Shown here: positions 15,645-58,341 of the stretch, piece after piece
Layout: every line of letters begins with the position of its first letter
Numbering within the stretch: position 1 is the stretch's first letter
Assembly: GCA_964016885.1 (NCBI GenBank)
Contig: OZ024743.1
Coordinates: forward strand, 228,594,001 to 228,658,000
Source: Eledone cirrhosa
Taxonomy: Eukaryota
Length of the DNA stretch: 64,000 nucleotides
Reading direction: 5' to 3'
Program-made: the position numbers and the translations under genes
Notes under the pieces: generated by a model
Told to the model about the DNA's origin: nothing
Databases searched by the model: none
What the model saw: the letters and a program-made list of their open reading frames with translations, nothing else

Positions 15645-15855
15645 TATCAGAGCCTTGGGACATATGTATATATATATATATATACATATGTCCCAAGGCT
15701 CTGATACCATCAACACCATAAACACAGAGCTGGGATATCTAAGAACTGACTAACTGCCTGATGAGGTCATAGCCATTCAATGGTTATCATCAAAATATAT
15801 ATAGCAGTAAATAAAGGATTATGAGTTCATGCAATTGACTTATGTTTCGTCACTA
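15645..15855 (+). mobile_element. Penelope-type pseudo-LTR relic: (TA)n-centred palindrome followed by hammerhead motif and AATAAA
   Basis: Perfect palindrome at 15645-15706, hammerhead-like fold at 15753-15808, then AAATAAA. Flanked by (TA)n. Confidence 0.6.
15753..15808 (+). ncRNA. Minimal type I hammerhead ribozyme-like motif (G12 to A mutated)
   Basis: Stem I ACTGC/GCAGT; CTGATGA at 15758-15764; stem II GGTCATAGCCAT-TCA-ATGGTTATCATC (11/12 pairs including GU); AAAA in place of GAAA; palindromic stem III ATATATAT; predicted cleavage after A15803. Confidence 0.7.
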
Positions 15856-18657
15856 TATATATATATATATTATTATTATCAAGTAACATGCAAGCAAGAG
15901 TTGGATGGGTTTTTAGAGATTGAGTCACTACTGAAATGGGGCTACTGATCTTCCAGAAAGGCCAAGAGACCACATTTTACTTACGTACAGTCCTGCATTC
16001 TACAGAGTACATTTTATCTTACCACCAACACTAGTGAAGATGTCATGTCTTTGACATAACTTATGATGAATGAAGCAGCAATAACACAAGCTTGCTTTGG
16101 GAAACTCCAAGTACCTAGGAAGGGGTATGCTAATTTCCCATGTGTTTTATATAATATAATATAATATTATATATATATAAAGCATAGAAAATAGATGTTA
16201 ACAATGATGAAGATACATAGATCATCATTTAAGTTCCATTTTTCCATGCTGGCAAGGTTTGGAAACACACACACAATTATGGTTTGTAAATTTAAAGGTA
16301 TCAAAGTATAAAAGTAGTAACAAACATTTACTGATTGGGGTGACTCCATACATATTGCAGAATCATATGTGTGTGCGTGTGTATATATATATATATATAT
16401 ATACTACATGCATACGCACATGTATATATATATATAACTTGCATATATGCAATCTTATATAATCTTCAATGATTTTTTCTTCCTCCATGAAAATAAAATA
16501 TACAGCATAAAGTCAAGAAGCTGGAGCCAGTAGTCTTTATTATGATGTATGATGGAGTTCAGAGTATAGTGAACCAAGCAAACAGCAAGACAGTGACATG
16601 AAACATCAGTTTGTTAGTTACACATTATCTGATTGAGATCAGTGTTTTTGTCATTGGATGAGGGGAACAAAAAGATTAAATTAAAAAACAACCATACTGA
16701 CTAATAGAACTAAGAACAGAAGAGAAATGAAGAAGAACAACATATAAATAAGAGAATGTAAGCAACAATTTAGTTTGTATTGTCAGCAACTGAGAGGAAA
16801 TTGAGTTCAGAAACAGCATAACCAAGAGAGAGAAAATGTTATTTATCACATGTCAATAAATAAGCAAGCAAACATATAATACATACAAACTGTAATAATA
16901 TTACTACTGTGTGCAAACAAAGATAAGTCACTGCTAAACAAAGATAATTCACTAGAGACTAGGATAAGGAAATAAAATGTAGAATGTGAAAACAGGCAGA
17001 CTTGAGTGAGTACATTGGATAGTTGGTTGGTTGTTTGGTCCAGTTTGTCAATGTTGACAAGTCAGTACTGTCATCAAAGTAAAACATTTTTATAACTAGA
17101 TGTAGGTTTCTATCATGACGTAAGAAATATTAGGGAGGAGGAAGGGTGGAAAAGATTCCTGGCATAAATACTATAGTGTAAAGTTAAAACAAATGACTGA
17201 GATTAATGCTAGATTTATTACAGTTGTTGCTGCTGGTATTGTTTAAAAAGGGAAATGAATTAATTAACTGTTGTTTAAAAAGAGCTGTGAATTAGCAAAG
17301 TCATTAGAGCAATGGATTAAATGCTTTGGGAATTTATTATGGCTTTCTGTTCTCTGAATTCAAAACCTGCTGAGCTCAACTTTGCCTTTCATCCTTTGAG
17401 GGGCTGATAAATAAATTATTGGTCCAGGGATGGTTTATTGGTAGAATTGTTAAAGGGTCTGAGATAATGCTTTGTAGGGTACTGATTTAGCCTCAATGCT
17501 TTCTGAATTCAAATACCACCACCTTCTGCAACTGTCAGGCAAATTTGACAATAATGGGTTTTGAACACTGAGGTATTTAATCCAACACCCTAACAACTCT
17601 GCCAATTTGCTGCAGCATATCGTAAGTTTCCCAAACAGATTGTCATTAAACAGTAGGTCTAGTCTACATATGCCCAACTGAGTCTTTAATAGAGAGTAGT
17701 TATAATAAGTGGTAAATTAGCAGTCATTAGAATATTGGATTAAATGCTTCAGAACTTTTTCTGGCTGACTTCTCTCTGTATTGGAACAGTACCGTTGAGA
17801 CCAACTTTGCTGTACATCCCTTTTTTGAGGTAGTGATAGTGGTAGGTTGATAAATAAAGTACTAGTCAAGGGATAGTGGATTGTCAGAATTGTTAAAGAA
17901 TCAGACAGAAGGCTTTGTAGTAACTGATCAAGCACTTCGTGTGTTGAGTTCAAATCCCACCTCCTCTTGTAAGGAATTGCAACCAGCAGATAGTATCAGT
18001 AATGGAAAGACTAATGGAAATATTGTCTATTTGGTTCAATCTGCCAATCATTCCTTGTCCTTACCTTGGCACTAAGGCCACATACTTACAAGGAAAGGAA
18101 CACCATTAACTGAGTGTCACCACATTTTATCAACCCCTAAACGGATGAAAGGATAAAGTAACCCGGAGGATTTCAATTAGAAGTTGATTTAATCTAATAC
18201 TACAAAGACTTTTTATGCTCTATTGATTCTGTCAATCCAACCACCAATGATTGTAATAATTAATGATAACAACAGTGATAATAATCTTTATTTTGACACA
18301 AGGTCAGTTATAACAATCTATAACTGTGATACAAGGCCATGATAATAATAATCATTAGCTGTGATACAATATCACAGTTATAATAATCTGTAGCTATGAT
18401 ACAATATTACAGTTAAAATGTTATGTAGCTGTGACTCAATGCCATGTATTTGTATGAGAGAAATATAGTTGATTAAATTATTCTACAGTATATTGTCAAT
18501 AGTAATTTTCATGATTCTTGAAGGATGACAGAAAAGTTAAACCTAACAAGACTTGGTATTCATATAGTTCAGTGAGGACAAGTGAATATGTTCTGTTGAA
18601 AAACTATTTTTAAATCTTAACATCCTGTAATGATTTAGCAAACATATAGTATCTTTA

Positions 18658-18812
18658 GGCAGAGAATTGGCAGAGCTGTTAGAACGTTGGACAGAATGCT
18701 TTCTGGTACTCACTCCAGTTCTCTGTTCTCGGAGTTCAAATCCTGCCAAGGTCAACTTTGCCTTTCATCCTTTCAAGGTCGATAAAAAAAATTAACAATC
18801 TAGTACTGGGGT
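18658..18812 (+). mobile_element. SINE family A
   Basis: GGCAGAGAATTGGCAGAGC..GGAGTTCAAATCCTGCCAAGGTCAACTTTGCCTTTCATCCTTTCAAGGTCGATAAA. A cluster of older copies lies at 17280-18250. Confidence 0.8.
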
Positions 18813-19639
18813 CAATTCTTCTTCTATATCTTTCTCATTTCCTCTCTCTCACTTTCCATCTTTCTCTGGAAGAAATCTGCTGTACTCAGGCCTGGGGAGG
18901 GATGGGCTCCACTAGGCTTAAAATCCCAAGAAACGCTGTATGTACACTGCCCCTACAACTCTATCGGGAGTTATGGGACCATACATACATAGTATCTTTA
19001 CTACTGAACAGATCATTGTGAAAATTTACACTATTAAGTTAAATATTTTAATGTTTAATGTGATGCAGTCATAGTGCTGTTTTATACTTTTCAAAAATGT
19101 CTTGCTAAATCAGTTTCATACAGAGTAGGATTGGATAATATCAAGATATGGTAGTGTAAGAAAGTAAAAATCTATGATATTACCAGTATAAAGGTAAAAA
19201 TGAAAGATTTCCATGATAAACATTGGGGACCAACTAATATAAGATCTTTCCTTTGTGAAAACAGTTTATTCTCTTCTGTGTTATAAATACATTTTCAAAC
19301 TAAAATATGTAGTATTTAGAGTTTTAATTAACATGAGCAAGCAGGCATGCACATAAACACACATGCTAGTCTGCATATATATACACACAAACAAAGACAT
19401 GTATATACACACAATGACATACAAACGCAGAATTTTGAATAACAACTTATGGTATTAATTAAAACGTCCTTTAAAACAAAATATAAAATTTAATAGAATA
19501 AAACAAGTAGTAGTAGTAGTAGCAGCAGCAGCAAAATTTTAAAATAATTCAAACTTTTGACATTTTGTGCTTGTTAGATATTCAAATTTAGATTTGAAAA
19601 TGAAAAGAACAGAAAAAACACATGCATATATAAATGCAT

Positions 19640-19678
<39 letters not shown>

Positions 19679-22600
19679 ATGTGTGTGTGTGTGTGTGTGG
19701 TGAACTAACTGTTGTATATATGAATATATATAAATATATACATACATATAGAAACACATATATGAACGCACTTATACACACTCACATGCATGCAAGCACA
19801 TATAAAATGGATACAAAATAAGGAAAAACTGTGACAATAAAACCAAGATGGAGGAAGCCAGTGAAAATGTTATTATTCTGAATAAATCAATAATTCCTAA
19901 AACCGAATGGTTTGATAATCAAATTACCAGCTTCTAATCTAAATATAAAATAGATTCTCACTTTGGAACAAATGATAGCATCATACGAAAGTAAGAAATT
20001 ATACTAGTATCAAACATCAAATATATAACAAAAATTCCAAAATTAGACGTTTTTTCCTCGGCAGCAACCAGCTTCTTTTTATAAGAGTGAGTAAGCAAGA
20101 GAGCACTTTTAGTTATCTTCATCCAAAGATAGCTATGTTGAAAATATTCACTTCTTTTTCACTCAATGACTACCATTAGAATGATGTATATTTCACCAAT
20201 TAGGGGCTGGGGTGGATGTATAGGTATGTGAAAAATATGAAATGAAATTTACAGCTCTCACCTATGTAGGCTGGCGTCCTACAAGGTTATACCTCAAAGG
20301 AAGTTTTTTGGTGTTTTAATGATAAAGGCTTAAGTACTATGATGAAAAACCATGTGAAATGAAGTGACTTGCTCAAGAACACAACATACCAACTACTCTA
20401 GGAATCAAACTTTTGACTTTATGATCATTAACAAATGAACAATAAAGAAAACCATAAAATGGAACATATGAATAACATGTGGTCCCCTGACCCATATATT
20501 ATAGGACAATAATTACCTGTCTAACCCCTACCAGTAAAGAAATCATCATTATTGTCATCATCATTTAATGTTTATTCTTCCATGCTGACATGGGTTGGAT
20601 AGGTCTTCATAGAATAAGCCAATACTTAATCAGAGCTTTGGATGTCTTGGATGGGCCAGAGTGTACTGGGTGCATTTTATCACATCAGCACTAAAAGAAT
20701 GGTTATGTCCTTGAAAAAACTAAAGTATTTTCAATCCTGTTTGACAAGTTTTCTCTGGAAAGCGGATGTAAAATGATGATGATAATGATGATGATGATGT
20801 TAATAAAACAATAATAATAGTAAAATAATAAAAGAAGGATAAGAAAGAATTTATAAAATAAAAAAAGTCTATAGTTTGGTCATAAAAGATAGCACATCAA
20901 CACACATCATTGGTTTCAATTTGAAGTTACAAACTATTGAAATTTAATTTAATTATGTTGAAAAATGACAGAATGTTTGTATGTCTCATCTGTTTAGTAA
21001 GCTGTATTGTAATGTTATTTTTTGTTGTAGCATTGTTGTTGCAATCATGTTATAACAGTAGTTGTTGTTGTAGTAGTAGTAGTAATAATAATAGTAGTAG
21101 TGGTAGTACTTGTAGTTGTTGGAGTTTTTCCTCTCCTGTTGTTTTTGACATTCAAAATAGAGCAAGGAGACATTTTCATTTTCAAAAGAAAGAAAGAATA
21201 GTCTACCAAACTATTTAATGAAATGAAATTATGAACTGTAAGTTTATCAACTATAAAGAATGTTTATGTTACATAAAGTGAATGGATTAGACACATGTAT
21301 GTGTGTATATATGTCTGTATGTGTGTGTTTGCAGATATGTATGCATATGTGTGTGTGGGTGTATATATGTATGTTTTTATACTTATATGTATATATTCAT
21401 GTATGTATATATGTATATATCTATGCATATATACATGCACACCACGTGGTGGTGTGCATGTATATTGCTTTTGTTCCTTGATATATGTGTGAGTGATATA
21501 TGTATGTGTGAGTGTGTGAATGCATGTACATATGTATACATAGTTTTAGTATTAGTAAGTAGGTAGTTTGTAAATGTGTGCAACACAAGATGGAACATTC
21601 ATGTAGTATAAGGTAATGCTTATCTGTGTAAGTGAATGATATATTCATATATACAAATGCAAACATACACACACACAAGTGTGTGTGTGTATATATACAC
21701 TCACACAAAGTAGAGCTTATCTTTACCTGCAAGTTAGGGTGCAGGTTGTGTATGTAGTGTAAAATAGAGAACTAGGTGTCTGTGTGTGTGTGTGCCTATA
21801 TGTGCATGTGTGTGTGTGTGGTAGGTCATGATTGTGTACTGTGGTGTTTACCTTTGTTCTTTGCCGATATTTATCTATCTTGCCATCTCTTTAATCTCAG
21901 TTACTTACAGTTCTCTGTCTTGTTGATTTCATATAGATTACATAATACAATGTACTGTATTTGGACATTAGTAGCCATTCTAGCTATCAGCCAAGCATCA
22001 AACTAAATAGAAGCCAATGTTCACCCATGTCTCGCTTTCCATCTCTCTCTCTATCTTGCCGTGTCTCTCTCGCCTTATCTCTCTCGCTCTCCATCTCAAT
22101 GCCTGACTCTTTCTCCATCTCCCTGTCTATCCCACTATCCATCTGTTTCCCTCTATCCATCTGTTTCTCCCTCCTAATATGTAACAAAGCTCCATGTACG
22201 TATAGGAAGAATTGATCTGTGATATGCAGGATGGAGGAGACCATGTCTGTTCAAGCTTACTTGAAGCCACTTTCTCATATGTATATGCATAGATAGATGG
22301 CATGTGTGTATGTATGAGATGTAAGTGTGCATGATTTGTGTATGCAGTTATGACATGGAAATATGTGGCTTAATTATTAAGGTGTTCATCTCCTGATCAT
22401 AAGGTTATAAGATGAATACGTTTCAGTGTGTTTTGTCTTGAGTCAGCCATTTTATTTTACATTACACCAGTCAATTCATCCAGAAAAAAAGACAAACTTA
22501 TCTGATCTTCAAGTACCAGATATGTAAGATCTGCAAACCATTCATTCAACATTTTTCATAAATGACACTGCCTATGAATTTCAAATAATTTTGAAAATCA

Positions 22601-23017
22601 TCAAGAATTTAAAAGGATTTAGAGTTATAACTAACTTTCTCATTATTAAACAGGTGTTTGGAACATAGAATAATTATGGGTCTTAGATAAAATTATGAAA
22701 GGAGCTTTTAGATAAATATAGACACTTTAAAATAAACAGGTTTGTATCATCAATCTAGGGGCTGTTTCATGTTGTTTGGTATCAAAAGTACTAAATTTAA
22801 AATAACCAGTGTTAATTGACAGAGACAGATTTTGTTGCAATTGTTATTACGGATGAAAAACGGGATGAAAAAAATCCTGATAAATAATTAGAGTTTTAAT
22901 ATTCCTTTATATTAAAAACATGGGCGGAGGTGGTGAGATGCTGTGCTGAATAGGACACGTCCCACCCTTGCAAGCAGAGAAAAGCGGACATAAAATGATG
23001 ATGATGAAGATGATGAT

Positions 23018-23137
23018 TAAGGCTAAAAAGTGAGTCTTGTTACTTTGGAGTTTTGCTTGTTTATCACAGTTCTTGTCTGATGAACCTGTGATAAACAGAC
23101 AAAACTCCAGAGTAACAAGACTTACTTTTTAGCCTTA
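23018..23137 (+). mobile_element. Fold-back element containing a hammerhead-like motif
   Basis: Inverted arms of ~54 bp. In the right part: stem I TCTTGT/ACAAGA, CTGATGA at 23077-23083, stem II CTGT-GATAA-ACAG, AAAA in place of GAAA, stem III ACTC-CA-GAGT, and triplet GUA ending at 23114. Confidence 0.7.
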
Positions 23138-23230
23138 GTGTGGAAAATGAACGTTAAACAATGATGATTATATATATATATGTATATATATATATATACA
23201 AAGAAATGATATATATATATCTATATCTAT

Positions 23231-23620
23231 GGAGGTACATGGCTTAGTGGTTAGAGCATTGGCCTTGCAATCAAAAGGTTGTGAGTTCAATTCTCAGACC
23301 AGGTGATGTGTTGTTTCCTTGAGCAAGACACTTTATTTCACATTGCTCCAGTTTACTCAGCTGTAGAAATGAGATGATAGGACTGGGGTCCCTACCATTC
23401 CACTGCAAAGTGGTCGTGGAGGTGCCACGGCAAAAAAGCACCCAGCCAACACTGTAAAGTGGATGTGTAGGCGCCATGGAAAAAAAGCAACCAGCACTCA
23501 CTGTAAATGAGGTTGGTGTTAGGAAGCGCATCGACCTGTAGAAATCAGGCCAGAATCGGTTCCTGTCCCACCCTTGCAAGCAGGGAAAAGCAGACGTAAA
23601 ATGATGATAAAATGATGATG
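23231..23620 (+). mobile_element. Chimeric SINE: family C head, RTE-A 3'UTR, RTE-B terminus
   Basis: Close full-length match to 50043-50425. The middle matches 32942-33110(-) and the end matches 39840-39900(-). Confidence 0.85.
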
Positions 23621-23660
<40 letters not shown>

Positions 23661-23679
23661 TGAGAGAGAGAGAGAGAGT

Positions 23680-23720
<41 letters not shown>

Positions 23721-25980: not shown

Positions 25981-25992
25981 ATAATAATAATG

Positions 25993-26652: not shown

Positions 26653-26967
26653 TGATAATAATAATAATGATGATGGTGATATAAAATATCATACTAATAT
26701 CCCCCAACCCCACCAAAAATTACTTTTTATTTCTAAAAAAATAAACAAATGATATTTGAATCAGAATAATTGATGAAAACAACTTCAAACAATATCTGTA
26801 TAGGTATATATAAATGAGAAACTATAATAACAGCTATTTAATTGAATCAAAAAATTTACTTTATAGAAAATGAGATATTTTAATTTTGCAATTTATCCAT
26901 TTTTCTCCAAAAAATATAAGTGTATAGATGTGAATTTGCATATATATATATATTAATACTTGTTGGA

Positions 26968-27017
<50 letters not shown>

Positions 27018-27258
27018 TCCGACAAGTATTAATAAATGGAGAAGGGGGAAATGAAAAATATAATTATGAAATTGAAAATCAAAATACTCATATTTGATTT
27101 CATATTTTATGGGTGTTCAGCTTGTAACTCCACTTAAAATGTATATAGCTTGTTTGCTTAATTCATTAAGAAAACATATTAATAATGCAATAACTGTTTT
27201 TGAAATAATGAACAATAGGTGGATAAATTTATTTTATTTATTTACTTCCTTTCTAAAC

Positions 27259-27319
<61 letters not shown>

Positions 27320-27499: not shown

Positions 27500-27546
<47 letters not shown>

Positions 27547-27569
27547 CACACACACACATATGCATTCAC

Positions 27570-28570: not shown

Positions 28571-29732
28571 TCTCTTACTTTCTCTCTCTCTACTTAACAG
28601 CTGCCAATAAGGCTTCCATAAAGCTAGATCACCTGGAGACCTATAAACAAGTTCATACATATACACACATAGATATTTATGTGCATATATACAGTGACAT
28701 ATACATACACACAAATGTGTGTGTATATATATATATATATATATCATAAATATATCCATGTGCACACACACACACACACACACATACATACATGCATACA
28801 TACATACATGTATATATATATATATATAATACTTGTATCTATGTGCACATATGCACACATACACATAAGTACAGACAAACATACAAACACACAAGTAGCT
28901 AATATGACTTTAATAACAGCTCATTATTTTTAGTGTCACATCATGCTAATTTCTTGCCCAATAAAATTGTAACATCCAATGCATTGAATATTGTATGTTA
29001 TGCTTTTATTGGGCAGAATAAATATTGTTAACAAATATTCTGGAGGAAAAATAAGAAAATAAAATGAAATAGAAGTTGTTTTAATAAATAAACTATGTTT
29101 CAATCTAATGTAAAACAATAATGAACACCATAACAATAATATGTGTATGCACGTATATATGTGTGTCTTGAAATGTATATATGCCTATCTGTTAATGTGT
29201 GTGTGTATGTCTTGAAATGTCTCACTAATTTGACAGTCATACAAGAGAAAAACGTTATGTGCCTACCACTGACACAGTATCAAATTATTATGCATCACAC
29301 GGTAGCAATTACGAAACAGCCATAAGAGGGGGATGGTGTGAGAAAGAAGGAAAACTCAGGGGGTGAAGAAACAGAGAGGGAAAGGTGTGGGGGAAGGAAA
29401 GCCTTTTACGCTGACAGTTGCATCTTCCTTTTGGTCACATAGACATCTTCCAGATGTCTTCAGGTGCACAATATTAAATGGCGTGGAACTAAAAATGAAA
29501 TCAAGGAATGCTTGACAACTATATCTTATTATCAGAGGGCCAATAATAAAATAATGATTCTGAAAGCCTAAACATAATATGAGAGTAAGTGAAGGAAGGA
29601 GGGAAGGAAGGAAAACAGGACAGATAGTGAGGGAGGGAAGGAGAGAGAGTTAAAGAAAAAAGATGTGTGCTGGAAGTGAAGGAATGAAATATGATAAAGT
29701 GTTATTTGAGACAATGAGACAATGTGTGAGCA

Positions 29733-29771
<39 letters not shown>

Positions 29772-31253: not shown

Positions 31254-31285
31254 ATGTGTGTGTGTGTGTATATATATATATATAC

Positions 31286-31795
31286 AAATATTAAAACAAT
31301 GAAATTAAACACAAAACTGTTAATTCATAGTAAAACACATTATTTTACGATCGTTTCTGGGAGGTAGTTCTCTGTATGTTCATTCAATTATTGATCTATG
31401 TAAAACATATTACAAAATATCATAGTGAGAAAAAAATACATACGTCTTCACTACCCGCCGTCTTCAGAAACAATTTCTGAAGACGGCGGGTAGTGAAGAC
31501 GTATGTATTTTTTTCTCACTATGATATTTTGTAATATGTTTTACATAGATCAATAATTGAATGAACATACAGAGAACTACCTCCCAGAAACGATCGTAAA
31601 ATAATGTGTTTTACTATGAATTAACGGTTTTGTGTTTAATTTCATTGTTTTAATATTTCTATTTTGACTCTGTATCCAATTGAATTATATCGTTGATAAA
31701 CATTTTTGTATTTTAAACTTTGCTTCACGACATCTACATATGGATTTCATTGAGTTCTTTATACGGTTTAGACACTACCATTGAGTGGTAGATTT
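31286..31795 (+). mobile_element. Penelope-type fold-back insertion: 373-bp palindrome plus unmirrored tail, with hammerhead-like core
   Basis: Arms 31286-31470 and 31474-31658 (185 bp each, one mismatch seen), loop CAA. CTGAAGA at 31477 and GAAACGATCGTA at 31587-31598. Microsatellite flanks. Confidence 0.75.
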
Positions 31796-32837
31796 ATCTC
31801 TCTCTCTATATATATATATTCAGGCTTCTATACAGTTTAGATCTACCAAATTTCCCTCATATGATGTTGGTAAACCCAAGCCTATGGTAGATGCTCCTTG
31901 CCCAAGGTGCCACACAGTGAGATTGAACCTGAAGCCATACATATTTGTGAAGTGAACTTCTCAACCCTACAGTAATGCCTGCACCTATTTATATAGATCT
32001 TCTCTTGGGAAGGGATTAATCTATAGCCTAGGACACATTCATTTTTCTTTTATTTCACAAACATATCTTGATGACTATAACTGTCTATTTCAGAAGTTCA
32101 TAATTTGTACATTCTAAATTTCCCAGGAGAAGGAAAAATCCAAATGAGTGAATTGAAAGAAATCAGGTGGTGGTAGTTTTAATAATTTCTCTTCCATTTT
32201 TAATTACTTGCTGAAAATTGAAAATTCTAAATAGAAACAATAATAACAACAAGTACAACAGGGTCAACAAAAACAACAACAATAATGACAACAAGAACAA
32301 CACATACAAACCATACAAACATTGAGACAACAGAATTGCTATATTTTCATTTATTCAATGATTTAATTACCAATGCCGTTTGAAGATTCTTAATGGATTT
32401 TACTTAACCTTTACATTTCAAACCATTCTCTCAAGACACCAATTTGCTGGTAATTTTGATTAAATATTTCAGTTAATCAGTCAATCAGAAATGCCACACT
32501 GTTTGAACTTCAGTATTAAGATAACTATTTAACGTTTATTTTATTCCTCTATTCTGTATTTTGTTTTTCTTCTTGAAGAATAATTCTAAAGATGTTAAAT
32601 TAGCTTCTTCACTACATAGTTGTGAAGGATAGGTGTGTTTGAGATAAAGCAAGTAGTCAAATGTAGATTAGTGAGAATGTAGCCAACATTTTACTAAGTG
32701 GCAAAAATATATTTTTATGGAATTACATAATATTTCAATTAATTAAACTTATTTATTTCATTATTAACCCATTAGCATTTAAATTATTCTACATTTACTA
32801 TTGTATTTTTATGGTAAAAGCTTTATTTTACATAATT

Positions 32838-34410
32838 ATCATCATCATCACCGTTTTACGTCCGTTATTCCACACTAGCATGGGTTAGACGGGTTGTCCT
32901 GTTGTGGGCAGTGTCCGGTCGGCTGACCTTGTCTTGCTCATACGGGAACTGATTCTGGCTTGATTTCTACAGCTGGATTCCCTTCCTAACACCAACCTCA
33001 TTTACAGTGAGTGCTGGGTGCTTTTTTTCCGTGGCGCCTACACGTACACGTTACAGTGTGGGCTGGGTGCTTTTTTTGTCGTGGCACCTCCACGACCACT
33101 TTGCAGTGGGAGAGTGTGGGGGCATATTGTCTATATGCTTCAGCTTCGGCTTGTACCTATGGGGGGTCGGGTCTTCTGTATTACTGTGTGACGCTAGAGG
33201 TCATGGTCGTGTACCATCGCCTTTGAGAGGTGTAATTGGGTAAGGTCGGTTTTTATCACCTCATCCCAGGTCTTCTTGGGTCTCCCCACTCCGAGGTTTC
33301 CATTGACTTCTAGGGCTCTGCACCTTTTTATGCAGCTGTCATCCTTCATATGTATCACATGTCCATACCAACGCAACTGCCTCTCATGCACACAGCATTT
33401 GATTCCTCTTATGCTCAATCTCTCTGTCAATTCATTTATGCTTTGCCGTTCGCGTATATTACTATTACACATCCATCGGAGCATGCAGGCTGTGTTTCTT
33501 TCTAATCTATGCAAGTCTTCCACAGACAGCGCCCAGGTCTCACTACCATGTAACATTGCTGTTCGTATGCATGCATCATAAAGTCTGCCTTTCATTTTGA
33601 GAGAAAAGCCTTTTGCAGCTAGCAGTGGCAGTAGCTCCCTGAACTTCTTCCATCCCGTTCTTACCCTAATTATTGTACTTTCCGAGCACCCACCTCTGCT
33701 GCTAATTCAGTCACCTAGGTAGCAGAAGCTGTCTACTGTTTCTACAGAGCCCTCCCAGAGTTTGGTGGTACTTGTTTCCTGTGGCTGTTTGCTGCTTGCT
33801 GTCCCAGCACAGCTGCTACATGTGAAGCCTACATTCTTAGTTAAGCTTCCTCAGATCCTGCTACATCTCTTGTGTACCCATTGTTTGCATTTGAGGCAGA
33901 GAATGGAGTTCCTACCTACACCTTTCCTACATACTGAGCAAGGCCATTTTCCTGTGGGGATCTGTGTTCTGTTTTCTCATCTACTTACAAGGACCTTAGT
34001 CTTTGTCAGGTTGACTTTGAGACCCTTTCTTTCTAGTCCCTGCTTCCAAGTTTGGAATTTCTTCTCTAGTTCTACCATAGATTCAGCTATATGTGCAAGG
34101 TCATCTGCATACAGGAGTTCCCATGGGCATCTGTTCTTAAACTCCTCCATTATTGCATGCAGGACTATGATGAACAGGAGAGGGCTAAGAACAGCTCTGG
34201 TGGAGACCGATCTGTACGCTAAATTCCTCGCTATACTCATTGCTAATCCTAACTTTGCTGACTGCTCCCCTATACATGGCTTGTACAGCTTTCACAAGCC
34301 ATTCATCTACTCCTAGTTTTCTAAGAGCCCACCAGATTATAGCATAGGGAACTCTGTCAAATGCTTTCTTGAGATCGACGAATGCCAGGTAGAGTAGCTT
34401 ACTTTTAGCT
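32838..34410 (-). mobile_element. RTE-clade LINE (RTE-A), 5'-truncated and disrupted
   Basis: RT motifs YLAFVDLKKAFDRVP, LSPLLFIIV, ELLYADDL, GLKVNLTKTKV and GRPKKTW. Has a 3'UTR and a (GAT)n tail; stops and frameshifts present. Confidence 0.95.
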
Positions 34411-36615: not shown

Positions 36616-36866
36616 GTTGGCAGAAATCCGTAGATGAAAGATCAAGGAAAACAGTTCTTGATCAGTTGGAAGAGAGCTTGTTTAGTATAAACAAAGTTTC
36701 ATACACTTAACATGTGCTACCATTGGTTTCATGGTCCAGTCATGGCCACCACTGTATAATGGCCAGTTTAAAAGTGCCTCCTCCACTATATAGTGGTGGC
36801 CATGACTGGACTCTGAAACCAATGGTTGCGCACGCATGTTAAGTGTATGAAACTTTGTTTATACTA
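36616..36866 (-). mobile_element. Fold-back element with partial hammerhead (GAAAC-CAATG-GTA)
   Basis: Inverted arms 36683-36762 and 36783-36866, unmirrored tail 36616-36682, (TA)n flanks. No CTGANGA found. Confidence 0.55.
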
Positions 36867-39490: not shown

Positions 39491-39837
39491 ACACATACAT
39501 ATATTTCCATCCTCTCCCTCTCTCTCTTAATACACCAACTCTTTTCATGATAAATTCAACAGTGTCGAACCATATTGTTAGTGCATTGTGCATGTATTTT
39601 CATTCTCATAAGGCTACAGTTACACATATACATACCAGAAAGTGTAATTATGCATGCATGAAAATAAGTATGTGTATATTGGCCAATGAACAAACATTTC
39701 TGCTTCAATATGTGAATGGATGCTTAAAACTAAAGATTATATATATACTTATATACATATATTTACACAGACACACATATATTTACATACATACACACAC
39801 AGAGATCTGTAAATATACATAGATATTTACACACATA

Positions 39838-40328
39838 CATCATCATCCTCATCATCATCATTTTATGTCCGCTTTTCCCTGCTTGCAAGGGTGGGACGGG
39901 TCTTATTCAGCACAGTATCTATCCACTTGTCACGGTCCTTTGTCATCTCCACCGTGAGCTTCAGCAATCTGAGGTCTGTTCTCACCACCTCCGCCCATGT
40001 TTTTCGTGGTCTACCTCTACCACGTCTTCCTTCAACTGGCATTTTCTGGCGCTTCTTCACCCATCGGTCATCCTCCATGTGCATCACATGTCCATACCAC
40101 TACAGTCTCCTCTCTTGCACACTACATTCTATCCCTCTCAGACACAGTTTATCTCTCAACACATCCATGCTGGGTCGTTCACGCACATTGACATTGCACA
40201 TCCAACGGAGCATGCTTGCCTCATTTCTCTCCAGCTGTCGTATATCCTCTGCAGTTGCTGCCCAAGTCTCACTACCATGCAGCATCGCGTTCCTCACACA
40301 GGCATCATATAACCGGCCTTTCGTACGC
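39838..40328 (-). mobile_element. RTE-clade LINE (RTE-B) 3' fragment; ORF runs into the tail
   Basis: KGRLYDACVRNAMLHGSETW..GRRGRGRPRKTW..RPTLASREKRT* is followed immediately by (GAT)n. Confidence 0.92.
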
Positions 40329-40859
40329 ATATATATATACTTACTCACACACACACACAAACATGCATATATATATATTCATCTAACCCATTCAAGCATG
40401 AAAAAGTGGACCTAAAAACGATGATGATGATATATAAACCCATGCTAGCGTAGAAGAATGGACGTAAAACGGTGATGATGATGATGATTATATATATATA
40501 TATATATTAATATATAATATATACGTGTGTGTGTGTGTATATATATTAATATATAATATATACATGTGTGTGTATATATACATATATATATGTATGTATT
40601 TTAATATGTATGTTATTTTAATAAATATATATGTATGTATATATATTAATATATAATATATACATGTGTGTGTTTGTGTATATATATATATATTCTTCTC
40701 CCTCCTCCAACTAGATGGTGTACCCTACACGTGACCATGGGAACTGTTGATGCATGCATGCATGCCAGCAACCATGGAGTGTTATCAAAGTTCAGTAGGG
40801 AGGGACAGGGTTAATGGGTGACAGCATTGATGAAAATAAATAATGAAGCTAGACCTTAA

Positions 40860-44098: not shown

Positions 44099-44154
<56 letters not shown>

Positions 44155-48394: not shown

Positions 48395-48449
<55 letters not shown>

Positions 48450-48495
48450 TCCATTCAAACAATCTCTTAAACATTTATACAAAGTTATGCATGTG

Positions 48496-48547
<52 letters not shown>

Positions 48548-50042: not shown

Positions 50043-50425
50043 AGGCACATGGCTTAGTGGTTAGAGCATTGGCTTTGCAATTGAAAGGTTGTGAGTTCAA
50101 TTCTCAGACTGGGTGATGTGTTGATTCCTTGAGCAAGACACTTTATTTCACATTGCTCCAGTTCACTCAGCTGTAGAAATGAGATGATAAGGACTGCGGT
50201 CCCTATCATTCAACTGCAAAGTCGTCATGGAGGTGCCACGGCAAAAAAGCACCCAGCCCATACAGTAACGTGGACGTGTAGGCGCCACGGAAAAAAAAGC
50301 ACCCAGCACTCACTGTAAATGAGGTTGGTGTTAGGAAGGGCATCCAGCTGTAGAAATCAAGCCAGAATCAGTTCCCGTCCCACCCTTGCAAGCAGGGAAA
50401 AGTGGATGTAAAATGAAATGATGAA
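50043..50425 (+). mobile_element. Chimeric SINE, second copy
   Basis: Collinear with 23231-23620 across both junctions. Confidence 0.85.
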
Positions 50426-50473
50426 ATGAACTATATATATGCACATACATATAAATACCTATGTACTCATAAT

Positions 50474-50504
<31 letters not shown>

Positions 50505-50544
50505 ATGTACCCATGTGTGTGCATGCATGTGCGCACGTATGTGC

Positions 50545-50608
<64 letters not shown>

Positions 50609-51742
50609 CCATTTTATGTCCCAAATGCAAAGTATGGGTGCATAAAAGATGTAGTGGGATCACAGGTAAGCTATCTAAGAACGTAGATTTTATATGTGGC
50701 TGGTGCTCAGATGCAATAAGTAGCAAGTGCCCACAGGATACTAGCTCCTTCTATTGCCCAGATGACTCTATAGAAATAGTCGACACCTTCCGTTACCTGG
50801 GTGACAAAATCAGCAGTGGTGGAGGCTGCTCTGAAAGTACAGTAGCCAGTGTCAGAATGGGATGGAAAAAGTTCAGAGAGCTTATATCACTATTGGCCGC
50901 TAAAGGTTTCTCTCTAAAAATGAAAGGCAGACTGTAGGATGCCTGCATACGAACAGCAATGTTACATGGCTGGGAGACATGGGCAGTGTGTGCAGAGGAT
51001 CTGCGCAGACTGGAGAGAAAGGAAGCATGCATGCTCCATTGGATGTGTAATAGTAATATATGTGAACGGCAAAGCATAAATGAACTAAGTGAGAAATTAG
51101 GAATAAGAGGGATCAGATGCTGTTTATTCGAGAGAAGACTATGTTGGTATGGTCATGTGATGCACATGAAAGACGACAGCTGTATAAAAATGTGCAGGGC
51201 GATCAAAATTGATAGAAGTTACGGAGTAGGCAGACCCAGAAAAACCTGGGACGATTTGATAAATTCCGACCTTACACCCTTACACCTTTCTAAGACAATG
51301 TCACTGGACTGAGATCTTTGGCGCTAAGCAGTAATACAGAAGACCTGCCTTGCCTAAGTACAAAGCAAAACCTATAGTGAGTAGGCACCTCTTAATCAAC
51401 TATACAACCCCATACCACTACCTCAACTCCACCCCCACCCCCATCAACACCATCCCTTTCTCTGGTACCACAACATCCAGTCCTAAATAAATGAGGTTGT
51501 GTAGGTGTCACGACAAAAAAAAAAACACACAGTCCACACTGTAATGTGGCCGTGTAGGTAACATGGTAAAAGCCTCCCAGTCCACACTGTAAACGTGGTT
51601 GGTGTTAGGAAGGGCATCCAGCCGTAGAAAACCAGCCAGGTAGTCCTATACGAGTGAGACAACCAATCTTGCCTCAAGTGGGATAATTCCCGTCTAAACC
51701 CATGCTAGCGTGGAAGATAGATGTTAAACGATGATGATGATG
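50609..51742 (+). mobile_element. RTE-clade LINE (RTE-C), 5'-truncated
   Basis: [38 protein letters not shown], then a 3'UTR with CCCATGCTAGCGTGGAAG and (GAT)n. Confidence 0.92.
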
Positions 51743-52092
51743 ATATATATATATATATATATGGGCATGCGGCTTAGTGTTCAGAGAATTGGATTCAAAA
51801 GCATGAGGCTCTGAGTTTCCAAGAGTGAGTAATGAATTGTGTCCTTCTGCATGACACTTTTTTTCCCATTGCTTTTGTTCACTCATCTGTAAAAATAAGT
51901 TGTAATATTACTGGTGCCAAGCTGTTTTGACCTTTGCCTTTCTCTTAGATGAATGACATTGGTGGCATGGAGAGTGGGGACTGGTATGTATGAGTGACTG
52001 TTCATCTTACACAACAACAGCTTGCTTCAGAGGGGAATTTTCTAGGTGCAAAACCCATAACCATTACTGAAGGGATGTTTTACCATTTGCAC

Positions 52093-52213
<121 letters not shown>

Positions 52214-53945
52214 ATGTGTGTGCGCATGTGTGTGCGCATGTGTGTGCGCATGTGTGTTTGTAGGATAGGAATTCTGTATTCCTGCATATCCTATGAGACA
52301 ACTAAAAGAGTTGCTAACACAAACGACTCTTCTATGTAATAGCTTCTTCAAGGCTTTAAAATGGCCTTGAAACACTTCCTCTGTTCTTATATTTATTGTC
52401 TCAAGCTGCTTTTGGCCAACAATGATGATAATAAATTCTTATTATACACACTCCTAATTTTTATTCTCCTCCAAGTTAGCTGTGTGCCAATAAAAGAGGG
52501 TCGGGATATTTAGCATCTATGTTTAGCAGCTTCAGCTTCCATGTGGAGATTCCTTCTCTGGCTAATCTTCATTAATGGTAGAATGGACAAAACAATACCA
52601 ACAATAACAAAAGTAGAAATTTCTGTTTATGTATGCATTTATTTAATTACTCCTAGAGATAGCGGTTCATCATGTAATTTAAGAAGAGATTTGTATCGTA
52701 ATAATAAAATAAATAAAGGAAATAAATATGTGTCTCTCCCAACACCCCCACCCCCATCCACCACCACCACCATCAAAAAAATAATAATATATATAATAAT
52801 TCTTGCAGTTTTGAGGAGAGATTTTTCTGTGAAATTTCCATATTGTGTTGCAGATGAAATAATCCAAGTGAATGTTATGTGTCTATCAAACGTGATGAAT
52901 GAACAGAATGAAGAGAAAATTCAGTTTCCGTAAGTAACAAATAGCCTATTGACATGAATTGAGGTTATCATGGATCAACAACTCCTCTTTTAGATTATAT
53001 TCTTTTATTCTTTTACTGATTTCAGTCTTTAGACTACTGATATACTAGGGCACCAGCTTAAAGTCAATCATATCAACTCCAGTACTGATGTGATTTTTTT
53101 TTTAAAGTCTGCTACTTATTTTATTGATCTCTTTCTTGTTGAAGCAATAATTTATGGGGCATCATTACAGACACAGACGTCATCACAAACAGACACGAGA
53201 CTCACACACAGACATGTATATAACATGCTTCTGTAGTTTCTGTCTCCCAGTTTTCACTCATAAGGCATTGATCAACCTGAGGCTATAGTTGAAGAGACTT
53301 GCCCAAGATGTTGCACAGTGGGACAGAACCAGAAACCACGTGGCTGCTGAATAAATCTCTTAACTACGTGGCCATGCCAGATAATTATTTTCAATCCTAA
53401 CAATTGGCGAGTAGAGGCCTGAAATTGAACCACAACGACAATCATGATGACAACCTCCAGTTAGGGTGGAAGGGTTGGAGATAAATAAATAATTGTTTCT
53501 ATTTTTTGCACAAGGCCAGCAATTACCCAGTACATTATGATATAAATAAATAATGTAGTATTTAAGATGTACAATATTTCAAATGAAAGACTATCAAAGA
53601 TTTTCAAATAACTTTGAAAATAATCAAGAATTTTGAAGGATTTTACAATATAATTACTGTTTTTAGAATTTAGAAAAGCCTATCACTCACCAGGTCTGAA
53701 CACAGCTAACTTGAGAGAGAGATTAGATGAAGAGCTAAGTTGATCCCATCAGGATTTGAACCTAGATCACAGAGAGCCAGTACGAATACTACAAACCATT
53801 GTAGTTCTAATGACTCCCACTTTGCTGCATTTAAAGAACAGATAAGTAAAAACAAAACCAAAATAAAACAAGTAAGAATGAAATAGACAGAAAGACATCG
53901 AGTTTATCAATTAATCTCTTCTTTTATTGCTAAAAATAGCTTTAC

Positions 53946-54034
53946 TTGAACAGAATACGTCATTGAATCTGACTTAGACATATATTGAAAAGCTCCACTT
54001 TGTACTGCTGCTGCTGCTGATGACTGCCTGCTAA
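53946..54034 (-). CDS. Candidate internal exon, unidentified gene
   Basis: Acceptor ATCTACCCAG (alternative TTTTCAG at 54111-54110). Frame SRQSSAAAAVQSGAFQYMSKSDSMTYSVQ; donor CAA|GTAAAG, phase 0. Confidence 0.2.
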
Positions 54035-54347
54035 CTGGGTAGATAATACATTCTAATGTGTCAAATCGTATACAGATGATAATGTACTGCATTTTGCATT
54101 GAAAATTTTCTGAAAATTTTCTGAAAATTAACTGAATATATTGGTTAAATGACAAGTGCAGTAGCTGATAAGAACAGAAGACAGCAATGTAACCCTTTCG
54201 TGACTGTATTTCTAATGAAATACACTCTATTTCAATTAATTAGTGTAACATTTTTAGGAATTTACTAAAATTATTGATTATTTCATTACTAAATAGTAAC
54301 TTAATGCATGGTTCCGATGTAAAATTAGAACAGTTTTATTCAAATAG

Positions 54348-54510
54348 GAACCCTCTGGTGTCCTTGGCCCTAGGACCACCTCCTGGCCCACCACCATCAA
54401 CACAGTGTTGGCTACTTGCAGGTGTGAGCCTCGTGAGCTTGAATGAGTCTTCCAACATGCTACCCTCATCGTCCTCCAGGGAAACACCTTCTCTATTCTA
54501 TCCACCGGGG
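54348..54510 (+). mobile_element. CRE-like (RLE) non-LTR retrotransposon C-terminal relic
   Basis: SGVLGPRTTSWPTTINTVLATCRCEPRELE*VFQHATLIVLQGNTFSILST resembles the ETxGxxG...QRxSxAxxRGNAxSIL ending of CRE-clade ORFs. GC-rich island. Confidence 0.55.
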
Positions 54511-55457
54511 CTGCAGGGCAGCCAACACATGGGCCCCCATTTGCTTATAATAGGGAGAGCGGGAGAGACAGTGACAGTTTGGTTCCATTGTGTTTGGACC
54601 TGGTATATATGTATACATGTATTTACCACACCACATTAATCATTAAAGTTCCACAGAATCAGTGCCACTTTAAGTCCAGCTAGTATCAAGAGAGTTAACT
54701 GAATATATTAGTTATATAATATGAACAGTAGCTGCCAACAACAGAATACAGCAACCTTAAAGGTGATACATTGAGAATTTCATTAATTTTTCAATAGCTT
54801 CAAGATGGATAAGTAAAAGAATGAATTTATTTGTATGTGTGTATGTATGTGTAGCATATGTCTGGTGCCGGGTGGAACGTGTGTATAGCTTTGTAGTTAT
54901 GGTATTCAGTGTACAATCATAATGTCATATATTTGATTCTCAGCAGCACATTGTGTCCTTGAACAAGTCACTTTATTTCAAGTTGCCCTAGTCCATTCGG
55001 TTGGCAAACATGAGTGTTTTACTCATAAATTCAAATGGCCAATCTTGTCACATTTTGTCACATTGAATCTCTCTGAGAACTACTTTGAAGGTGCATGTGT
55101 CTTTGGAATGCTTCGTTGTGTGCATGTTAATTCCATAAGCAGGCGGTCCCATTGTTTAAAAAATAAGAAGACATGTGATCGGTACTGTTGGAAGTTCAAC
55201 ACATAAGTGTGTGTGTGTGCTTGTGTGTGAGCATATGTGTGTATGTGTGTATGTGTACTTTGTCATTTGTCATCATTTCTGATTAGTAACCCTAATATAC
55301 ATTCTCACAGATTAGAGAAATATTGTACAAATATGTGTATATATATGTCTGTGTCTTCAACAATTACCATCCATATTTAATGCTTCATTCCAATATACAC
55401 AACTCAGACAATACACTCATCCAAACACATGAACATATATTTATATATGTGTATATA

Positions 55458-55532
<75 letters not shown>

Positions 55533-55593
55533 CAGAGTCATTAACTCATATTGATACCCTGCAATTAACAAGCTCAAAGTATAAATACTGAGC

Positions 55594-55757
55594 AGAAATA
55601 AACACAGTAAATTCTGTGTCTAAAATTACGAGGGTAGAGAATGCCACAAATGTTTTATATATTTAACCTGAAACATACAGTAGGATAAATATATAAAACA
55701 TTTGTGACATTCTCTACCCTCGTAATTTTAGACACGGAATATACTATGTTTATTTCT
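55594..55757 (+). mobile_element. Fold-back element whose loop is a hammerhead 3' half
   Basis: Arms 55594-55669 and 55682-55757 (~76 bp, few mismatches). Loop GAAACATACAGT followed by A. Confidence 0.6.
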
Positions 55758-55769
55758 ACATATATTATT

Positions 55770-55890
55770 TTGAGTTCAAATCCTGTCGAGGTTAAATTTG
55801 CCTTTTATCCTTACAGGGTCGATAAAATAAAGTACCAGTAATGTACTAGGTAATTGCTGGCCTTGTGCCAAAAGTAGAAACAATTATTAT
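55770..55890 (+). mobile_element. SINE family A, 5'-truncated
   Basis: GAGTTCAAATCC..GGGTCGATAAAATAAAGTACCAG..CCAAAAGTAGAAACAATTA. Confidence 0.85.
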
Positions 55891-57334
55891 ATATATATAT
55901 ATGCATGTATATGCATATGTAATAAATAATATAAGACATACATATTGTACATATGGCAATGAGGTGATAGTGAGAGAGGGATTGTCACAGTAACTGATAT
56001 AAAAGTCTTTTAATTAAGGTTCTTCAAAAATTTGCCTCAAGTTAATGAATTTGAAGAACTTTTCAATATGTTTCTAAATTAAAAGAATAATTATTCATAT
56101 TTGTAATACACACACACACACATATGTATATATACATACAAACAAGTATGTATATAGCTATATACACACAGACATATGTTGGAGGTAGGGGCAGGGGGTG
56201 AAGGCAATACAATGGGGAACAGAGGGGGGAACATATGGAAAGAAGGAAAATGGGGAATGAGAGGAACAAGAGAGAAAAGGGGAAGAAATAATCAGTGGAG
56301 AGAATGTTAGGAAAAGAAATAAATGAGTGAAGTTAAAAGAGTTAAAAGAGGCGGGGAGACAATGAAGACATGCAGGAAATAGGGGGGGGGGGCAATTGCA
56401 ACAAAGAGAGAGAGAGCGAGGTAGATAGATAGAGGTGAGAGAAATGAGAACTATAGAAAGATGAATGAAAATGAACAAAATAAATTAAGAGAATTTTAGT
56501 GTATCATGGTAGAAAAAGAAAAAGAAATATCATAATGAACAACAAAGGAAAAATAATAAAAAGATAAGTCAGTGAAAGAAGAAGAAGAAGAAGAAGAAGA
56601 AGAAGAAGAAGAAGAAGAAAATGAGGATGAGGAAGGGGATGAGGATTATATCTATTTGCCACCAGGGCACCAATGGAGTGTGGAGGTTGGGGGAAAAATG
56701 ATGATGATGATAATAACATATGACAACAACAACAGTTAATTAGACTTTGAAAACAAAAGAAAAAAATATATACATAAAGCAAACAAACAATCAAATAAAG
56801 TGGAGCACAGAGAAAAATTGTGTTAAATATTTAATAGTGGAAAGAAAGAGAGAAATGATAGAAGAGGAGTGAGAAGTGTAATAAGAGACAGAACTGGGTG
56901 GTATATCGCTATATATATATATATAGTAATAATAAATGGGAAGACTAAAACCCGAAGAAGGCTTGATAAGGATTATATATATATAAACCTGTACAGTAAT
57001 TCTTTGTTAAACTTTAATCTGTACTTATAATATATATATAATATATATATAATATATAATATAATATATAATATATATAATATATATATATAATATATAT
57101 ATAATATATAATATATATATATAATATATATATAATATATAATAGTATATTACAGTTACTACCCAAGCAAACACCCCAACCATTGATTACCTGTACTAGA
57201 CACAGAGGTCTGGTTAGATACCATTAATAACAAAAATCAAATCCTCCATTCCCATTATGCCAAACCCTTGACTTCCAAATATCTGATCCACCGAAACTCA
57301 GCTGTTTCGGACCATACCAAAATCAACATACTGA

Positions 57335-58099
57335 TTGAGACACATACAACACTTCATCCACCATATGCAGTTCTCTGGTTACAATCAGAGAGATAAAATC
57401 AGAGTATATAGAGGAGCCAGAACCAAATGGGAAAAAATGGTAAATATTGATACAAATGGGACCTGCCCCTTGTATAGGAGAACATTTTGGAATAGAATAG
57501 AAAGAACTAGGAATAAGGTTAATAGAATAAACTCATGGTATGATAGCAATAAATACCAGAGTGTAATGTTCATTGATACAACCCCTAGAGGTGAATTAGC
57601 TTACAAATTTAGAAGGGCCCAAGATAAACATAAACTCAATATTAAGATAGTAGAAAGACCAGGTACCTCCATAAAAACACTTATTAGTAATGCATACCCT
57701 TTTCAAAGACATCCCTGTATAGATAAGAAATGTATAATCTGTAAATTAAGCCCCCATATTAACTGTAAAACTAAAAATGTAGTATATAGCATAAGATGTA
57801 TTGAAGGACAATGTAGAGATAAGAATATAGTGTACATAGGTGAGACAGCTCGTAGTATAGGGGAATGGATAAATGAACACTGGCGAGAGCTTCAAGATAG
57901 TAAAGAATCATCTGTACTCCACCAACATGCTAAAATAGAACATAAGGGTAAATTAGAGAACATAGAAATAAAAATAGAATCTACACACAGAAAAGACGCA
58001 ATGTTTAGACAAATCACAGAGGCAATAAACATAAATGAACTCCAACCAAAATTAAATAGAAAACATGAATGGAACAGCAACATCACAACTTACAATTAA
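57335..58099 (+). pseudogene. PLE thumb/linker plus GIY-YIG endonuclease ORF remnant
   Basis: SGY motif; CIDKKCIIC knuckle; NVVYSIRC-x4-C..VYIGETARS; EH..H..H; R.ITEAINI..PKLN. Confidence 0.9.
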
Positions 58100-58298
58100 G
58101 GACAAAATGAAAACACACACACACATAGAACAAACAACCAACCAGTAACATGTAAATAAACAAATAAATAAACAAATATAAACACACACAGACACCTGGA
58201 TTTAACACATGCGCAAACTAAGCACACAACACACACAAAAACAAGATGGCGTAGGACAGAACAAAGGAGAGGCACAAAAGCAAAGAAAAGAATCCCCA

Positions 58299-58341
58299 GT
58301 CACTGGAGAGGTCACAGAATGTGTGACGAAAGAACTTTGAC
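58299..58341 (+). ncRNA. Degenerate hammerhead motif in the PLE pseudo-LTR
   Basis: Stem I GTCA/TGAC; CTGGAGA (A6 to G); stem II GTCACA/TGTGAC with one extra G; GAAA; short stem III AG-AA-CT; H = T58337. Confidence 0.5.

Follow-up and report, generated by a model that had tools for sequence, protein, structure and literature searches.

Fold-backs, hammerhead motifs and truncated Penelope-like element ends in a 64-kb window of the Eledone cirrhosa genome

What produces a set of fold-backs that share no obvious primary sequence and are all built alike? The question is raised by a window of 64,000 nt from Eledone cirrhosa (GCA_964016885.1, contig OZ024743.1, forward strand, positions 228,594,001-228,658,000), in which five non-coding loci combine an inverted duplication with neighbouring microsatellite and apparent hammerhead ribozyme cores. 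The original prediction took them for a dispersed class of solo or non-autonomous, retrozyme-like products of several Penelope-like element (PLE) families, and supposed that the ribozyme may be the place where reverse transcription snaps back.

In our reading, which we consider rather probable, the loci are truncated and mostly head-to-head ends, or pseudo-long terminal repeats (pLTRs), of six PLE families lying in AT-rich simple repeats, and the fold-backs come from two cDNAs of the same source that were joined at their growing ends. Family membership, the linkage of four families to open reading frames (ORFs), two 3' ends, a rule of one tail per pair and 5' hotspots were observed directly. 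The loci are not a new class, and an inverted truncated partner, a one-sided tail and a bias to microsatellites have already been described.

Families behind the window loci

The fold-backs were located by self-BLAST of the window, which recovered all five where they had been placed, with arm identities of 100% (15645-15706), 86% (23018-23137), 98% (31282-31662), 82% (36683-36866) and 88% (55594-55757). The neighbouring microsatellite is present as well, with (TA)n at most about 15 nt from an outer end in four of the five and (ATG)n adjoining the locus at 23018. An assembly artefact was ruled out, as in four window loci the two arms are 2-18% different and copies differ in their junctions. Each arm was searched against the species' own genome (3.0 Gb), 40 copies being scored and 30 loci read per family. 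The arms are not single-copy (707-1823 first-look candidates per query), and the diversity in sequence holds, each locus being the end of a different high-copy family. These families are named F1 (15645), F2 (23018), F3 (31282), F4 (36683), F5 (55594) and F6 (58303), while F7, F8 and F10 come from outside the window.

Linkage to PLE ORFs was found for four of them, in each case with a GIY-YIG or RT (reverse transcriptase) ORF upstream in the same orientation. F1, whose copies are 98% identical, reaches a GIY-YIG ORF with a CxCX5C linker when walked upstream on the same strand. F3 continues into an endonuclease similar to that of F1 and a reverse transcriptase (RT) with DKT and RW motifs; the nearest Atlas cluster of this RT is eukaryotic and commonest in Cnidaria, and some of its neighbours bear RVT_1. 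The link is weaker for F4, where one body copy has broken thumb and endonuclease frames and an inverted RT piece lies nearby. The sixth motif, predicted to lie downstream of a Penelope-like ORF, is real, and F6 is the pLTR of the window's own GIY-YIG ORF, with a Neptune-like linker, weak Pfam matches (GIY-YIG E=0.0048, RVT_1 E=0.0031) and a pLTR-ORF-pLTR copy of about 4.0 kb elsewhere in the genome. Read from translations, the CxCX5C linker occurs in F1, F3, F4 and F8, CxxC and CxH motifs in F1, F3 and F8, and DKT and RW-x motifs of the RT in F3 and F8; Pfam and PDB searches did not recognise the Hydra-like proteins. Motif matches point to a Hydra-like assignment for F1, F3 and F4 and to a Neptune-like one for F6, and the four loci are, to judge from sequence, fragments of autonomous elements. 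Long low-complexity inserts rich in N, T and P are held by the F1, F3 and F6 ORFs (L372, L373, L375), and these recall the asparagine-rich inserts of rotifer Penelopes (PMC3846280).

Outside the window, F8 (L371:576-7882; C1:437.20-437.21 Mb) is a very young PLE of Hydra-like type, in which 3531-bp units stand in tandem and a frame of 784 codons is open. All 40 of its scored matches are 100% identical over 241 nt, and about 40 of its arms occur per Mb. According to the accessible part of PMC8557442, the Hydra clade likewise has the CxCX5C linker, DKT and RWK-like RT motifs, no CCHH motif, and (TA)n targets. Its units are generally under 3 kb, whereas F8 units measure 3.5 kb, and F3 differs from the clade in being without a canonical hammerhead.

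The loci might also be separate non-autonomous mini-elements, similar to miniature inverted-repeat transposable elements or retrozymes, that spread as ready-made hairpins. F5 speaks for this as a 467-nt head-to-tail unit with no ORF seen and a hammerhead of long helix III, and so does F2, the body of which is about 250-300 nt; no contiguous ORF was found within the 1.5 kb searched upstream, in 30 loci of F5 and 30 body-bearing loci of F2. F5 resembles the non-LTR retrozymes, as presented in the accessible parts of PMC7229834 and bioRxiv 10.64898/2026.07.22.740005, in its short head-to-tail units, type I hammerhead, lack of a visible ORF and PLE-like ends, and animal retrozymes are there given a PLE origin (bioRxiv 10.64898/2026.07.22.740005). 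It differs in that it also makes head-to-head insertions with a tail, and it is the only one of the six families to fit, F1, F3, F4 and F6 being unlike retrozymes. Junctions vary from copy to copy in every family, so each hairpin was made anew at insertion; additionally, four families continue into GIY-YIG ORFs, and, in contrast to terminal inverted repeats, the two arms are unequal at their 3' ends. The notion of mini-elements is contradicted for F1, F3, F4 and F6, and as an account of the loci at large we hold it to be highly improbable. The predicted origin in several PLE families is upheld through F1, F3, F6 and, more weakly, F4, but the retrozyme-like label suits only F5 and possibly F2.

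Two 3' ends and one tail per pair

Two fixed 3' ends are found in every family, separated by about 50-140 nt, and an arm stops either at the short end or at the end of the tail. (TA)3 comes directly after the arm end in 195 of 243 cases, compared with 391 of 5000 random positions. When head-to-head pairs are classified by these ends, one tail arm faces one short arm in 61 of 63 (binomial p=2e-16 vs 0.5). The count was taken from 65 head-to-head pairs of F1-F4 and F6, of which 63 were classifiable; left out were 15 F5 pairs (tandem, with ambiguous ends), two secondary fragments of counted junctions and two pairs with an unclassifiable end. The F2 pair of the window, both arms of which are without a tail, is the sole such pair among the 63. 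A follow-up set of 13 long inverted F8 insertions was chosen after this result, and 12 of them aligned (L388 gave no usable alignment); these insertions are 98-100% identical and have one tail arm and one short arm in 12 of 12 pairs.

The 5' ends of the arms, where the two meet, behave differently from the 3' ends. At this end the tail arm is longer than its partner in 22 of the 61 pairs, shorter in 17 and equal in 22, the first class being inflated by the queries; incidental pairs split into 1 longer, 7 shorter and 5 equal. The tail arm is longer in 7 F8 pairs and shorter in 5, with junctions anywhere along the 3.5-kb unit, and these junctions have overlaps of 1-6 nt in 7 cases and filler in 5. 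The position of the junction is not constant within any family. In 22 of the 73 one-tail pairs (61 and 12) neither arm is contained in its partner, and the same is true of the F4 pair in the window. The two arms of an F8 insertion share a source haplotype, none of the 12 pairs being discordant at a variant seen elsewhere.

Such pairs would be expected if the enzyme nicked both target strands and each nicked strand primed one cDNA, the outer (tail) start site being used for one and the inner site for the other. Each cDNA would stop independently, and the 3' ends would then be joined through 1-6 nt of microhomology or a short filler. In the twin priming of LINE-1, two target ends prime two cDNAs whose joining by microhomology yields an inversion, and the segments do not overlap. 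The proposed process shares the priming at two ends and the joining, whereas here the starts of the two arms, near the same 3' end, are 50-140 nt apart, and both arms copy the same stretch. Several of the steps have counterparts in vitro, where purified PLE protein nicks and extends both strands, two internal start sites define the tail, and the protein is predicted to be a dimer (PMC11167929, accessible part). No published account with two cDNAs or run-off was found in the literature covered, which left aside subscription papers and older reviews.

A different route to a hairpin is self-priming, in which one cDNA or antisense RNA primes on its own end, the hairpin that results is resolved at the short site by the endonuclease, and later asymmetric deletions in the centre give non-nested arms. 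Long palindromes do undergo centre deletion. The single haplotype shared by the arms agrees with this route, and the 20-nt inverted 5' copy at 15645 has the look of a genuine snap-back made locally through (TA)n. For the rotifer Penelope, self-priming on an antisense template was proposed (PMC3846280), and endonuclease-mediated resolution was proposed for the tail (PMC8557442). However, both nesting directions occur (7 and 5 of 12) even in insertions that are about 99.7% identical, arm starts differ by up to 2.5 kb, solitary copies end at either 3' site, and both sites are RT start sites in vitro (PMC11167929). Additionally, the arms of 17 pairs each hold sequence that is missing from the partner, which a single self-copying cDNA is insufficient to explain without later deletion. 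We regard self-priming, the chief rival reading, as unlikely.

The insertions closely resemble those of endonuclease-bearing (EN+) PLEs. The EN+ insertion units, as described in the accessible parts of PMC8557442 and PMC3846280, have the same head-to-head inverted copy, tail at one end and heavy 5' truncation, and likewise partial tandems, (TA)n targets and a hammerhead in the pLTR. Their tails are 30-40 nt, compared with about 50-140 nt here. Relative to those parts of the two accounts, two things are added here, a count behind the one-tail rule (73 of 75 pairs) and a hotspot to which 5' ends map.

Two peculiarities of the insertion sites were also seen. Solo F2 copies at L009 and L014 are flanked by apparent target duplications of at least about 45 nt with extra sequence between, and at L376 the sequences that border an F8 inverted insertion, beyond its two (TA)n tracts, are inverted repeats of one another.

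Five-prime hotspots and the place of the hammerhead

Arm ends cluster at a family-specific point, which lies 7-72 nt upstream of the hammerhead core or inside loop II (offsets are given relative to C3 of the core). The F1 hotspot is at -72, with 20 of 30 copies, and 4 of 6 incidental copies, at -67 to -74. Paired F2 arms start near -9 in 25 of 36 cases, and F3 starts near -7 in 14 of 30. For F6 the point is about -60, since 9 of 30 incidental arms fall in -74 to -55 and 2 of 30 in -10 to +45; a YY1-like motif lies there (58242-58251 in the window). The F8 hotspot gathers 74 of 106 arms within a 15-nt span inside loop II. In body-bearing copies of F1-F5 and F8 the hotspot coincides with an Inr-like TCAT or TTAGT, and F2, F7 and F8 have a TATA-like box about 30 nt upstream of it, as labelled by the consensus motifs of initiator (Inr) and TATA elements. 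Reading the F2 hotspot as a splice acceptor (AG|) was ruled out, as F1, F3 and F4 have no AG there.

These motifs suggest that the hotspot is a transcription start. Tandem units form the pLTRs of F6 (about 4.0 kb), F8 (3531 bp) and F5 (467 nt), and in full-length tandems the pLTR and tail stand at the front of the next unit, so that an RNA starting at the hotspot carries both RT start sites close to its 5' end. Priming at such 5'-proximal sites would give short cDNAs that run off the 5' end of the RNA, and run-off would leave solo copies that begin at the transcription start. The hammerhead would then be a passenger near the start in several families, decaying after insertion. On this view the ribozyme would be near the junction only in families whose promoter is near the ribozyme.

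The families themselves do carry hammerheads. A type I core (CUGANGA, stem II, GAAA, helix III, UH, stem I) is present in family copies of F1, F2, F5 and F6. Both core halves are kept in 30 of 45 tallied copies of F1, and the commonest form of F6, in 32 of 61 tallied copies, is intact. The F2 family core is intact, has C-C at 10.1-11.1 and decays mainly at one CpG; F4 has an 8-nt variant of the 5' half. F5 has an 8-bp helix III, and F8 has a U3-A8 core, with a TATA-like box and the 5' hotspot inside loop II. F7 (for example L052, L182, L281), at 22 arms per Mb, has CUGAUGA..GAAA with a stem II of only 3 bp and no stem I. F10 (for example L241, L293, L306, L332) has an 8-bp A/U stem I and a TATA-like box just 27 nt upstream of C3; its junctions appear scattered, with no obvious fit to the hotspot rule. 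The minimal type I hammerheads of metazoan PLEs have the same short stem I, longer stem II and short palindromic helix III, in many divergent families and mostly as single dispersed motifs, and opposite-strand pairs 100-700 bp apart and the U3-A8 variant were already reported (PMC4209133, accessible part).

The copies in the window are poorer than the families. A strict descriptor, which requires CUGANGA, a stem II with 5 or more pairs, GAAA, helix III, UH and a stem I with 4 or more pairs, found no hammerhead in the 64 kb, and a relaxed one, with one core change allowed, found two (15758, G12 to A; 58303, A6 to G), compared with none in 20 local dinucleotide shuffles. The motif at 23077 is a damaged copy of the F2 core, and 36761-36866 has the 3' half only, in both arms. 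The motif at 31477 combines CTGAAGA with a palindromic helix III-like stretch, yet it has GAAGA where GAAA is expected and is without stem I or II, and this is so throughout F3. What reads as 'GAAA..TA' at 55670-55682 is ordinary pLTR sequence seen on its antisense strand, and the real F5 hammerhead, about 30-130 nt upstream of both arm starts, is missing from the window locus. A hammerhead in each locus was only partly borne out: the sixth motif is genuine and family cores are mostly intact, but none of the six window copies is sound, each being damaged, reduced to a half or degenerate, and the one at 55670 is a chance match on the antisense strand. No hammerhead family was among the best 150 of 402 Rfam matches (E<=10), which are uninformative microRNA-like hairpins and microsatellites. 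Single-strand folding z-scores of hammerheads were weak (-2.2 to +2.1, two slices lying off the motif), and folding was used as evidence only for the F5 and F8 layouts. Support for the hammerheads comes from the shuffle control and helix III palindromy, because stem variation across families is built into the descriptor and family copies decay neutrally.

Could the hammerhead, by its structure or cleavage, stop reverse transcription and guide the snap-back, as first supposed? The junction does lie at or in the motif in three of the five window loci (23018, 31282 and 36683) and in many F2, F3 and F4 copies, and the starts of two F2 arms, at +36 and +38, fall on the 3' strand of stem I. It does not at 55594, nor at 15645, where the palindrome is merely the first 20 nt or so of the F1 element, 72 nt upstream of the core. 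Of 130 arm ends just 2, both with filler, lie within 4 nt of the cleavage site, and the offsets are specific to the family, ranging between -72 and a position inside loop II. In F1 and F6 the hotspot precedes the core by 60-72 nt, and it is present in F3, the core of which is degenerate family-wide; in long copies junctions are up to 3 kb from the ribozyme; and 64 of 75 fold-backs surveyed have no descriptor hammerhead nearby. Hammerhead cleavage was also not needed in vitro, where ribozyme mutants left insertion products unchanged (PMC11167929, accessible part). As a general rule, snap-back at the hammerhead is contradicted, and we think it very unlikely to account for the fold-backs.

The reading of two joined cDNAs that run off at a promoter has its own difficulties, and the following points weigh against it. 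As regards the hotspot, it is weak in F4 (about -19, 7 of 26) and in F5, most arms of which scatter; a clear TATA is missing from F1, F3 and F4 and an Inr from F6, and the transcription start is proposed from motifs. The F1, F2 and F3 queries began at the junction, so that primary matches cannot show truncations further 3', and the F2 and F4 reference sequences in the arm-start count begin at the hotspot. Between core and cleavage site start 13 of 26 F4 arms and 11 of 36 F2 arms, and RNA or cDNA stems may contribute locally to these starts. As regards the joining, 36 of 67 junctions have filler rather than clean microhomology, and the shared haplotype of the arms also fits the copying of one cDNA or later conversion. 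Finally, no difference in start site between top and bottom strands is reported in vitro (PMC11167929, accessible part), whereas the genomic pairs imply coupling.

Genomic density and other features of the window

Hammerheads were surveyed in 80 evenly spaced 10-kb stretches (800 kb) and in 200 kb beside the window. The strict descriptor found 39 in the former and 0 in each of 4 shuffles, and 3 in the latter and 0 in 5 shuffles. Helix III is fully self-complementary in 30 of the 42 strict matches, which by eye form about ten families of sequence. There is about one intact-looking hammerhead per 20 kb, and the extrapolated total is about 146,000 motifs per genome (bootstrap 90,000-210,000). Fold-backs were surveyed in 1 Mb, in stretches chosen without regard to content. 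A density of one per 10-12 kb had first been suggested; complex fold-backs number 75 (one per about 13 kb), and a descriptor hammerhead lies within 150 nt of only 11. (TA) flanks 55 of the 75; 30 match the eight family references and 45 match none.

The density of hammerheads and fold-backs here exceeds the figures of the cited papers, with the proviso that the descriptors differ. For minimal motifs of metazoan PLEs about 2,000-9,000 per genome are given by another method (PMC4209133, accessible part), compared with about 1.5 x 10^5 here; other methods gave 126,247 motifs in the axolotl (PMC7229834, accessible part) and 235 Rfam matches in the giant squid (PMC6962438). On hammerheads in genomes of this kind nothing beyond these papers was found, in a literature that did not take in subscription papers or older reviews.

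A wider picture may be drawn, which we offer as possible, with the balance tipped slightly against it. Two-ended integration would be recorded genome-wide, with a different RT start for each nicked strand and head-to-head joining of the cDNAs. Most short copies would be 'strong-stop' products whose 5' ends map the family promoters, one of which would have a TATA box and a start in hammerhead loop II that leaves the RNA 5' copy a half ribozyme; hence the roughly 10^5 motifs and a fold-back every 13 kb or so.

The features of the window are collected in the table. Besides these, a SINE-like (short interspersed element-like) repeat (window 55770-55860; L122, L133, L043, L044) often abuts F5 or F3 ends at its AT-rich tail, which suggests that one element targets the other. 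Fragments of another non-LTR retroelement, presumably RTE-like, lie at 33194-34316, 39813-40415, 50473-51345 and 58841-59581, and include a 717-nt, 95% inverted pair 25 kb apart; they gave no Pfam match of note. Additional local inverted repeats are at 26948-27037, 1042-1569 and 28955-29015.

Table 1. Elements and parts in the window (window positions; signed offsets are from core C3)
Feature	Position	Strand	Remarks
Short inverted copy of first ~20 nt of F1	15645-15665	-	(TA)n spacer separates it from F1; without ribozyme or 3' end
F1 solo pLTR, probably Hydra-like PLE	15686-15860	+	5' hotspot (-72) to short 3' end, then (TA)n
F1 minimal type I hammerhead	15753-15808	+	5-bp stem I, palindromic helix III, G12 decayed at 15792
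F2 inverted arm	23016-23069	-	Starts at +9 inside stem II; decayed hammerhead 3' half
F2 direct arm	23068-23137	+	From 5' hotspot (-9); damaged type I hammerhead at 23071-23120
F3 inverted arm	31282-31474	-	-7 to short 3' end (+185)
F3 direct arm, probably Hydra-like PLE	31473-31799	+	-4 to +325, 140-nt tail (31663-31799); degenerate hammerhead relic 31477-31507
F4 inverted arm	36617-36762	-	+32 to tail end (+175); hammerhead 3' half
F4 direct arm	36761-36866	+	+10 to short 3' end; hammerhead 3' half, GAAA at 36815
F5 inverted arm	55527-55687	-	+116 to tail end (+302); no ribozyme in this copy
F5 direct arm	55682-55768	+	+134 to short 3' end; piece of 467-nt tandem retrozyme-like unit
C-terminal ORF part, 5'-truncated Neptune-like PLE	57335-58099	+	GIY-YIG, CX4CxxC linker; Pfam GIY-YIG E=0.0048, below curated cut-off
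Motif at F6 5' hotspot, about -60	58242-58251	+	YY1-like
F6 minimal type I hammerhead	58299-58341	+	A6 changed to G in window copy
Remaining F6 pLTR with 52-nt tail	58342-58537	+	Ends in (TA)n; no inverted partner within window

As a new class of ribozyme element the loci are ordinary; the mechanism that replaces the rejected snap-back is testable. The origin of inverted one-tailed PLE insertions is named an open question (PMC8557442), and the steps after priming are given as unvalidated (PMC11167929), in the accessible parts of these papers. The one-tail rule, which is nearly invariant, the non-nested arms and the promoter-linked 5' hotspot lead to definite predictions for the in vitro system that already exists, and the genome contains F8, a very young family whose tandem ORFs are intact. 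Hairpins of this kind, in their thousands, would also give rise to much double-stranded RNA and to many false microRNA calls.

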